A stretch of DNA of 64,000 bases from Arenicellales bacterium (lineage in GTDB: Bacteria; Pseudomonadota; Gammaproteobacteria; Arenicellales; JAHEKD01), in contig OZ242007.1 of assembly GCA_965204695.1 (NCBI GenBank), positions 3,047,701-3,111,700 of the forward strand. The letters are read 5' to 3'. The translations under genes were made by a program, and so were the position numbers. Positions 11,278-12,581 of this stretch are shown here, one piece after another (position 1 is the stretch's first letter; each line of letters starts with the position of its first letter). Below the pieces are notes generated by a model that did not search any database, was not told where the DNA came from, and was given only the letters and a program-made list of their open reading frames with translations.

Positions 11278-11317
11278 TATGTCGCCTAACAAGTGACTAT
11301 GGTTCCAAGTCAAGTAT

Positions 11318-12259
11318 TTAAGTTAGAGATTGATTCCAATAAGTTCTATTTTTCATCATTGCATTAAGCGTGATAAGTTGTTTTCTGGCACAGGCAATTA
11401 ACGCGACTTTTTTAGGTTTTCCCTGTGCCACCATTCGCTGATACATGGGCTTTAACCTGGGATGATGTTGAATCGCAGACATCATTGAAACAAACAACAC
11501 CGTTCTGACCTTATGTCGTCCACCGCGAATATAACGTTTTCCTGTTTTATGACCGCTGTCACGATTAAAAGGGGCTACACCCACCAAAGATGCGATTTCC
11601 CGTCGATTAAGGCGGCCCAATTCAGGCAGTTCACTGAGCAAGGTATAGGCGAGTACTTTACCTACACTATGTGCACTCATGAGAATATCCACACTGTGTT
11701 GCCATTGAGGTTCTTTAGCAATGGCTTTATCTAATTGTTTATCGATCCACATCAGTTCTTTTTGAATGGTGTTTAGAATACGCTTAATCGGTGCATGCAC
11801 CGATTTGGGCATACGTTTTAAGCGATTCTTCTGCTGGGTGCTCATCTCCAAGCATTGAGACCGAACGGTGATTAAGTCGCTGATTTTCTGTAGATTATCT
11901 GGTTTTAATTCAGTCAGATTAGGTTTCATTACTTCACCAAAATGGGCGATGGTGAATGCATCTAACTTATCTGTTTTCGCTAATTTTCCTGTTGCGTTTG
12001 CAAAATGATGCACCTGTGACGCATTACAGATAACAATGGGTAATCCGGCTTTGAATGCGGCAATGGCAAAGGGCATTTCCAATCGACCCGTGGACTCAAT
12101 GAGGATGCGCTTTGGGTTAATGGAACGCAGTTTGCAAATGGCCTCAGCGATGCCTTGGGTGTTGTTTGAAACAGAAAAAAACTCATTCGATGGGCGAATG
12201 CCGATATCAAGTTGAGATTGAGATGTGTCGATACCGACATTGATTTCAGGGTGATTCAT
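11318..12259 (-). CDS. IS110-family (DEDD) transposase/recombinase, 313 aa
   Basis: The N-terminus is [13 protein letters not shown] (RuvC-like DEDD start). The C-terminal part is [18 protein letters not shown]...[30 protein letters not shown], typical of IS110/IS1111 transposases. Confidence 0.85.
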
Positions 12260-12503
12260 AAGCTAAGCTACCTCTTGCTTGTTATTCGAGCTCTGGGGCT
12301 TTTATGCCCAGTGGGTGCACATGACTATTCGAAGTTATGCCTGAGAGATTTGTAGTGCTCGAACTTGTTATCGATCTCAATAGGATCATTCCAGCAACGA
12401 ACTACTACAAATGGCCTTCAGTTACGCTCTGAAGGTGGGTCCCAATTTACCCGGTAAGACAATATAATAAAACAATGAAAATACGTCTAAATCAATCATA
12501 CAA
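12260..12503 (-). ncRNA. Candidate guide (bridge/seek-type) RNA region in the IS110 leader
   Basis: Plus-strand layout: CTTGTTA (12278-84), TTCGAGC (12285-91), 65 nt, GCTCGAA (12357-63), CTTGTTA (12364-70). The transcript would therefore carry TAACAAG, the attC target heptamer, on both sides of a 7-bp stem. TGACTAT (12322-28) equals the IS terminus at 11294-11300. A second hairpin lies at 12415-12435. Confidence 0.3.
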
Positions 12504-12581
12504 GCCAATGCAGCCGACCAACAAACCCTCACTTTCGTTCGGGTTCATGTCGGCTGAGTTCAAACGTTAGCTGCCAAGATT

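Follow-up and report, generated by a model that had tools for sequence, protein, structure and literature searches.

An IS110-group insertion sequence in an integron attC site of an Arenicellales bacterium, with a predicted bridge RNA whose guides covary with target and donor DNA

The stretch analysed here, hereafter the window, comprises 64,000 nucleotides (nt) of an Arenicellales bacterium (contig OZ242007.1 of assembly GCA_965204695.1, positions 3,047,701 to 3,111,700) and carries a small integron, in which a split integrase gene is followed by cassettes with their attC sites. The second of these sites, attC2, is interrupted by a complete insertion sequence (IS) of the IS110 group, which lies on the minus strand and whose left end appears to encode an RNA guide. 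The guidance of IS110 and IS1111 elements by RNA is established (PMC11208160, PMC11187229). The attC sites were read by eye with the help of folding, three home-made attC detectors having given 0, 0 and 3 matches (too strict or too crude). Coordinates are those of the window, and IS orientation means reading along the minus strand.

10811-10890: attC1, intact, read by eye.
11284-11293, plus strand: R''-side half of attC2, GCCTAACAAG; in IS orientation it gives the core CT plus the right target TGTTAGGC.
11294-12504, minus strand: complete IS110-group IS, 1,211 bp with one shared-core copy counted in, delimited by comparing its junctions with the intact attC1.
11294-11302, minus strand: right end of the IS, which in IS orientation reads CCATAGTCA and is the left donor sequence recognised by the left donor guide (LDG).
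11318-12259, minus strand: recombinase gene, 313 amino acids (aa), with DEDD RuvC-like and Tnp domains (Pfam, NCBIfam).
12493-12504, minus strand: left end of the IS, CTTGTATGATTG in IS orientation, the core plus the right donor sequence.
12505-12572, plus strand: rest of attC2, from the L'' arm to the R' box GTTAGC; the bases at its start form the left target when read in IS orientation.
12926-12980: attC3, read by eye.
13531-13585: attC4, read by eye.

After 1,211 bp of foreign DNA attC2 restarts at 12505 with CCAATGCAGCCGACC…GTTAGC, and its two halves, once rejoined, closely resemble attC1, with which they have the R''-proximal arm CCAATGCAGCCGACC in common, and fold into a canonical attC hairpin. 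On the plus strand the IS end TGACTAT (11294-11300) directly follows GCCTAACAAG, and the boundary may fall anywhere within the 5-bp repeat CTTGT/ACAAG, as ACAAG stands at both 11289-11293 and 12500-12504. An earlier reading of this locus, made by a model from the letters and their open reading frames (the sequence-only reading), had seen both the split after GCCTAACAAG and the ACAAG at the two junctions, as the comparison with attC1 confirms; its element end was one base off. It had also set the insertion exactly in the R'' box, whereas the crossover falls 1-3 nt 3' of the RYYYAAC heptamer and overlaps only the last two bases of the box. The sequence TAACAAG, which it ascribed to every cassette, is present in three of the four attC sites, attC4 reading TAACAAA. 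Within the window no second copy of the IS was found.

The recombinase matches PF01548 (E 1.5e-17) and PF02371 (E 5e-15), together with the NCBIfam model NF033542, 'IS110 family RNA-guided transposase' (184.9 bits, cutoff 140), in agreement with the earlier assignment to the DEDD/IS110 recombinases; an exact-protein look-up returned no record for the protein of the window copy. Its gene is preceded by a non-coding left end of 245 nt and followed by a right end of 24 nt. The closest named relatives found are ISCps7 and ISSde13, with 50% and 46% identity, respectively, over the full length of the recombinase; their sequences come from the supplement of PMC11187229. ISCps7 is placed here by sequence similarity only, and ISSde13 is listed as an IS110-group element with its RNA in the left end (Durrant supplement, PMC11208160). 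The pairwise identities and the long 5' end place the element in the IS110 group rather than in the IS1111 group. When six family-specific peptides were compared with the ISfinder set in the Siddiquee supplement, none but a generic one was found, and no close named relative emerged; a new IS name would be due because identity to ISCps7 and ISSde13 is at or below 50%.

The left end contains a predicted structured RNA, whose secondary structure was derived from an alignment (A2) of 24 distinct homologous leaders. Two hairpins come first, at the 5' end; a long outer stem then encloses an inner hairpin with a loop on either side of it, and after a linker comes another loop-hairpin-loop arrangement, so that a target-binding and a donor-binding lobe follow each other, each with two short guides: the left and right target guides (LTG, RTG) in the former, LDG and the right donor guide (RDG) in the latter. 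From 5' to 3' its parts are the following (pair numbers are columns of A2).

12266-12454, minus strand: predicted bridge RNA, a structured non-coding RNA 5' of the recombinase gene, defined by covariance model R1 and covariation.
12437-12452, minus strand: 5' hairpin, GGGUAAAUUGGGACCC, whose loop covaries with the loop of the donor-loop hairpin.
12415-12435, minus strand: second 5' hairpin, CCUUCAG...CUGAAGG, with compensatory changes in six of seven pairs.
12398-12411, minus strand: 5' arm of the target-loop outer stem (helix 46-58/108-120).
12388-12397, minus strand: LTG, UUGCUGGAAU, hypervariable; its expected match is the attC inner-arm side of the target.
12373-12387, minus strand: target-loop inner hairpin GAUC-CUAUUGA-GAUC, between LTG and RTG; at pair 71/94, 21 sequences have GC and 3 have AU.
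12364-12371, minus strand: RTG, AUAACAAG, the complement of the core plus right target CTTGTTA(G).
12349-12362, minus strand: 3' arm of the target-loop outer stem, including TTCGAGC.
12320-12329, minus strand: LDG, AAUAGUCAUG; its AUAGUCA (12322-12328) equals the right end's top strand.
12289-12300, minus strand: donor-loop inner hairpin AGC-CCCAGA-GCU; at pair 186/197, 20 sequences have GC and 3 have AU.
12278-12285, minus strand: RDG, AUAACAAG, whose pairing with the left end CTTG-TAT leaves one base bulged.

Over the 24 leaders 94.4% of the cells in the two-lobe structure are paired and 20 pairs show compensatory changes; the covariation score of 0.351 compares with 0.173 ± 0.009 for column shuffles, none of 500 of which reaches it, and with at most 0.098 when the partners are slid. 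The target-loop outer stem is well supported (98% paired, 10 of 12 pairs compensatory), and the stretch 12300-12317 beside the donor-loop hairpin is, according to the alignment, a lineage-specific insertion. The covariance model R1, built from A2, has a single match in the window (12266-12454, minus strand, 150 bits). In loci outside the training set, which reach down to 41% protein identity, it finds the RNA just 5' of the recombinase gene with E values from 1e-45 to 1e-4, except for two opposite-strand matches in locus L033 (194-365 and 5443-5598).

The loop of the 5' hairpin is complementary to that of the donor hairpin (A2 columns 10-14 and 189-194), and at column pair 13/190 AU (17 sequences) has switched to GC (6 sequences) in at least three lineages. 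This may reflect a kissing-loop contact or else a long-range alternative helix: RNAalifold favours the latter, between the 5' end and the donor hairpin, in competition with the two local hairpins. The local hairpins with a loop-loop contact were kept because pair 186/197 changes on both sides, whereas 4/197 changes only from G-C to G-U.

The protein search yielded thousands of relatives, many of them 67-93% identical in metagenomes. DNA of close relatives came from a scan of genome contigs (41-73% identity) and from exact-protein look-ups; a metagenome scan with the single protein gave only 15 loci, mostly distant or partial. In IS orientation the close relatives share one arrangement, in which the left flank is followed by CTTGT ATGgTTG…, the leader, the recombinase gene, CCATAGTCA and then CTTGTTA[GT]…; the right flank is the complement of an attC R'' box plus AAG, attC inner arms form the left flanks, and at several loci whole cassette arrays surround the element. 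This pattern persists to about 46% protein identity in the Gammaproteobacteria Marinobacter, Marinobacterium, Alteromonas, Neptunomonas and Gallaecimonas, recurs in a Vibrio harveyi plasmid and a Pseudoalteromonas chromid, and is absent in relatives with 41-45% identity from Dehalococcoidia or Nitrospira. Copies with the same leader at sites lacking TAACAAG had been named by the sequence-only reading as evidence that would tell against a guide; the element P0071, with an identical leader, occupies at least five different sites, every one of which reads CTTGTTA[GT].

The short motifs that the sequence-only reading had pointed out in the leader are all where it put them on the plus strand: CTTGTTA at 12278-12284 and 12364-12370, TTCGAGC at 12285-12291, GCTCGAA at 12357-12363 and TGACTAT at 12322-12328. 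Its central proposal, an element-encoded bispecific guide RNA with one arm directed to the attC R''-box region, finds strong support in the covariation of UAACAAG (12364-12370) with the target. RTG is complementary to CTTGTTA(T/G) and in the window copy matches the target at all seven positions; five variant pairings, each RTG variant standing beside its own complement, supply the covariation between guides and insertion sites for which that reading had proposed to look.

L010: RTG UAUUAAG, right flank CTTAATA.
L025: RTG UAACCAG, right flank CTGGTTA.
L019: RTG UAACCAG, right flank CCGGTTA.
L007: RTG GAACAAG, right flank CTTGTTC.
L014 and L015: RTG UAACAAA, right flank TTTGTTA.

The other target guide, LTG, which the earlier reading had missed, lies in the columns where the RNA is least conserved. 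Its match with the left flank covers 10 of 10 positions in L005, 9 of 10 in L006 and at two P0071 sites, and 8 of 10 in several others; the mean best match of 6.5/10 exceeds that of mismatched pairs (5.0), and none of 20,000 permutations reaches the observed mean. The clade pattern that emerges from these comparisons is one of an RTG nearly fixed on the conserved attC box and a hypervariable LTG that appears to track the attC family of the host.

On the donor side, the identity of TGACTAT at 12322-12328 to the IS terminus was correctly noted before and corresponds to LDG, which covaries with the right end. The latter is kept as CA[TC]AGTC[ATG] among relatives, and the co-changes ACAGUCA/CACAGTCA, AUAGUCU/CATAGTCT and AUAGUCG/CATAGTCG fall at positions -6 and -1. 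Of the two TAACAAG copies that had been taken for target guides, then, only that at 12364-12370 acts as such in the alignment, being RTG; the copy at 12278-12284 is RDG and follows the left end. In nearly all relatives RDG is AUA(A/G)CAAG whatever the target, with invariant AUA and CAAG columns, so that it reads AUAGCAAG in most of them and not the complement of the target; L014, L015 and the plasmid copies differ, and in L014 and L015 it becomes ..GCAAA where the left end is TTTGTAT. The heptamer at 12278-12284 resembles the target because donor and target share CTTGT.

One relative stands at a site of another kind. In L010 (metagenome-assembled genome contig JAQBSZ010000003.1, 64% identical, junctions near 2230 and 3470) the site is not an attC but TATAACGCC/CTT/AATAGTAGG, and LTG (8/10) and RTG (7/7) are both altered to fit it. 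RDG is unchanged and still complementary to the left end, though the target is now CTTAATA. These matches mark L010 as a case of natural retargeting, in which the crossover can be narrowed to CTT.

Taken together, these data make it very probable that the window contains an intact IS110-group IS that entered the attC site of the second cassette in a chromosomal integron by RNA-guided, site-specific recombination and whose left end encodes a canonical two-loop bridge RNA. The anatomy of the element, the covariation within the RNA and the complementarity and covariation of guides and DNA are direct observations; for transcription, binding of the RNA by the protein, circle formation, the chemistry of strand exchange and the exact core we infer the following course. 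The element would leave its site as a circle, whose junction of right and left ends, …CCATAGTCA-CT-TGTATGATTG…, would at the same time build a promoter. In the target-binding loop RTG AUAACAAG would pair with CTTGTTA, that is the complement of the R''-box end TAAC plus AAG, and LTG with the adjoining inner (L'') arm of attC, which varies between attC families. The DEDD/serine recombinase would then swap strands at the shared core (CT within CTTGT), with no target duplication beyond the core. The candidate junction promoter is made of two parts.

11308-11313, minus strand: TTGACT, candidate -35 box, placed by reconstructing the circle junction.
12495-12500, minus strand: TATGAT, candidate -10 box, within the left end.

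In the reconstructed junction they form TTGACT-18-TATGAT, promoter-like by consensus reading; TTGAC is kept in the right ends of relatives, and a distant lineage shows the equivalent TTGACA-17-GATAAT. The donor core is flanked by an imperfect 7-bp repeat, TATGATT/AACCATA (6/7), which in relatives is a perfect 5-bp one (TATGG/CCATA); with 7 bp it exceeds the 2-3 bp given for IS110 and sits at the bottom of the 7-17 bp range of IS1111. A further promoter-like sequence, TTTAGA-16-TATTAT (12464-12491, minus strand), ends 7-10 nt before the conserved RNA start at 12454 and would let a transcript begin a few bases ahead of it; promoter-like sites of this kind are not above chance in number in the region.

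Several observations weigh against this interpretation. The fit of LTG in the window copy is poor: in the usual register only 3 of 9 positions agree with its own left flank (…GGCTGCATTGG), and in a register shifted by 3 nt 7 of 10 do, a score that 11% of mismatched pairs also reach, and the register of LTG relative to the core varies between lineages by one nt or more. Three insertion sites (L001, L016 and L012) match RTG at only 4-5 of 7 positions. A scan of 10700-13100 with Rfam 15 (E <= 10) gave only spurious snoRNA and miRNA matches and no bridge-RNA family, the single-sequence fold of the leader is no more stable than shuffles (z = -0.69), and the donor-loop base stem, which overlaps the ribosome-binding site, lacks compensatory changes and is weakly supported. 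As for LTG, a 93%-identical relative gives 7/10 and 8/10 in the shifted register at its two sites (L096, L098), with one position changing in parallel, and this register may apply to the window lineage; the perfect-match target of the window LTG is TTGCTGGAA-CT. The poor fit could be due to mismatch tolerance, to a lineage-specific geometry or to off-target insertions, and it may mean that targeting in this lineage is dominated by RTG and tolerates LTG mismatches far better than IS621 does.

One alternative is that attC is recognised mainly by the protein or through folded attC DNA, the RNA serving only donor recognition or regulation and the RTG and LTG matches being secondary. Integron integrases do recognise attC sites by structure, LTG fits the flank only weakly in the window copy as in its close relatives, and RTG is so nearly invariant that most of its match carries little information. 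This explanation is nevertheless quite unlikely, as each lineage with an altered RTG lies at a correspondingly altered site, the non-attC site of L010 included, and LTG matching of the flanks beats all 20,000 permutations; moreover, related IS110-group elements are guided by RNA in experiments (PMC11208160, PMC11187229). That the heptamer matches arose by chance, or are relics of the target copied into the element, has an almost vanishing probability: TAACAAG is indeed not rare in the window, with 10 occurrences on both strands against 9.0 expected, but two same-strand copies within the 245-nt leader are expected at only about 1.5e-4 (our own calculation), and both keep their positions and change in step with their DNA partners in relatives as distant as 46% protein identity.

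The model of the sequence-only reading itself, a single hairpin (TTCGAGC/GCTCGAA) flanked by two identical target-complementary heptamers that both guide to attC, draws on motifs and a 7-nt inverted repeat that are present in the window copy, whose lineage also has two identical octamers AUAACAAG. A perfect 7-bp inverted repeat is, however, expected about 1.8 times somewhere in 245 nt (again our own calculation), that is at chance level, and the single-sequence minimum free energy fold contains the target-loop outer stem and not this one. The proposed stem is not conserved: 72% of it is paired, compared with 70.6% in shuffles, and its covariation score (0.075) is no better than theirs (0.066); one of its seven pairs changes on both sides, in two sequences, and pair 110/197 is broken in 21 of 24, while TTCGAGC belongs to the strongly covarying outer helix. 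The 3' heptamer is AUAGCAAG in most relatives and stays the same in L010 despite a new target and RTG, and two identical guides would pair with the same strand and the same half-site, leaving the two sides of the crossover not both specified; we hold this model to be very unlikely. Membership of the IS1111-attC group, to which the reading had linked the element, as one of the ISPst6/ISKpn4/ISPa25 type with a seekRNA is extremely unlikely. The class of target and the orientation, with the recombinase gene antisense to the cassette, are those of ISKpn4 in the qacL attC, but BLASTP finds no significant similarity between the protein and the ISKpn4 transposase (E = 0.35; a partial alignment with 17% identity), the non-coding region of this 1.2-kb element lies 5' of the gene instead of the ~270 nt 3' in ISKpn4, the insertion falls 3 nt after AAC rather than ~8-11 nt, R1 has no match in the ISKpn4 locus, and the order of the guides is of the IS110 type. 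Nor does the element account for the targeting by the IS1111-attC group, as had been suggested, since the attC-seeking RNA of ISKpn4, ISPst6 and ISPa25 has already been demonstrated experimentally (Siddiquee et al. 2024, PMC11187229).

Beyond the single copy, it is evenly balanced in our judgement whether a widespread marine gammaproteobacterial clade of the IS110 group, related to ISCps7 and ISSde13, evolved attC homing independently of the IS1111-attC group, with a guide half fixed and half tunable, in which RTG is held to the conserved R''-box end and a fast-evolving LTG follows the attC inner arms of each host, and with an occasional escape to non-attC sites such as that of L010. Copies of the clade in Vibrio, Pseudoalteromonas, Marinobacter, Microbulbifer and Alteromonas are labelled only 'IS110 family transposase'. 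ISSde13-like elements have been seen inside Shewanella integron arrays, where the authors found no IS interrupting attC sites (PMC9229058), and the literature on bridge RNA or IS110 together with attC or integrons, in a search that left ISfinder and paywalled papers aside, gave no description of attC homing by the IS110 group.

Some individual loci deserve mention. L128 (Vibrio harveyi plasmid NZ_CP154270.1) and L129 (Pseudoalteromonas pPBSW1, NZ_CP013139.1), whose RNA matches have E values of 1e-35 and 1e-33, respectively, lie at CTTGTTAGG sites beside small cassette-like genes, the RefSeq label being only 'IS110 family transposase'. L115-L119 and L121 (P0054 lineage) keep the donor loop and the recombinase gene, but unrelated sequence takes the place of their target-binding loop and left end; they are probably 5'-truncated elements. 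L120 has the same protein and retains the target loop. In the window itself the integron integrase gene (9250-10052, minus strand) is split into two open reading frames (ORFs) matching TIGR02249, one of 220 aa covering model positions 102-315 (262.8 bits, just below the cutoff of 265) and a separate one of 66 aa covering positions 56-82. It is probably a frameshifted pseudogene, and the cassette array may therefore be immobile. The cassette between attC3 and attC4 (12993-13525) carries two small overlapping ORFs, of 106 and 71 aa, which by layout alone resembles a toxin-antitoxin pair. Directly after the fifth cassette an IS3-like orfA (14325-14606) and a subsequent fragment (to 14926) appear to end the recognisable array.

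The element thus appears to be a new, unnamed IS of a widespread marine IS110-group clade that reached attC targeting independently, and it leaves the known mechanism of RNA guidance in IS110/IS1111 unchanged. Integron attC sites appear to be targeted by two unrelated branches of RNA-guided DEDD recombinases, which offers a natural comparison in the form of a bispecific guide tuned to a target of which one half is conserved (the R'' box) and the other variable (the L'' arm). For annotation, the label 'IS110 family transposase' in cassette arrays deserves attention, as insertions into attC can go unnoticed (e.g., PMC9229058). For integron evolution, such insertions split attC sites and can freeze cassette arrays, and for engineering, a long RTG combined with apparently relaxed demands on LTG could inform the design of bridge recombinases.

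Among known systems, the IS1111-attC group (ISPst6, ISKpn4, ISPa21, ISPa25), reportedly described by Tetu & Holmes in 2008 and by Post & Hall in 2009, shares with this element the site- and orientation-specific insertion near the R'' end of attC, a recombinase gene antisense to the cassette, and an element-encoded RNA guide with short matches to both strands of the target. It differs, judging by the anatomy of an ISKpn4 copy in the qacL attC of a Klebsiella plasmid, in that the RNA lies 3' of the gene, in a ~270-nt non-coding region with 11-bp subterminal repeats GGACTCTCCCC, where the window element has 24 nt; the order of the strand matches is reversed, and ISKpn4 inserts ~5-8 nt further into attC. 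Group IIC-attC introns, cited in PMC3001079, are also mobile and home to attC by RNA-DNA pairing, but they are retroelements with a ribozyme and a reverse transcriptase, unrelated in mechanism and sequence.

Closer in layout is the seekRNA of ISEc21, an IS110-family element, which lies in an upstream non-coding region and has its bottom-strand match 5' of the top-strand match; its site is a linear one inside IS3-family transposase genes, and only a target-seeking part of 58-74 nt has been characterised (PMC11187229). The nearest counterpart is the bridge RNA of IS621 and the IS110 group (Durrant et al. 2024, PMC11208160), with which this element shares a DEDD recombinase, a long left end with a structured RNA, a 5' target loop with LTG and RTG and a 3' donor loop with LDG and RDG. 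In both, LTG and LDG have top-strand sense, as in the published IS110 scheme, in which they correspond to the top-strand sequence of the left target and the left donor (PMC11208160), RTG and RDG are complementary, and the core lies within the pairings. Also in common are a discontiguous RDG pairing, reported for IS621 (PMC11208160), a short inverted repeat round the donor core (here CCATA...TATGG) and a junction promoter, here a candidate one. The possible loop-loop contact of the 5' hairpin with the donor hairpin sets this element apart from the IS621 type. Its RTG has 7-8 nt including the core, against 4 nt plus core in IS621; its donor and target share 5 bp (CTTGT) instead of 2, and its target is an integron attC site.

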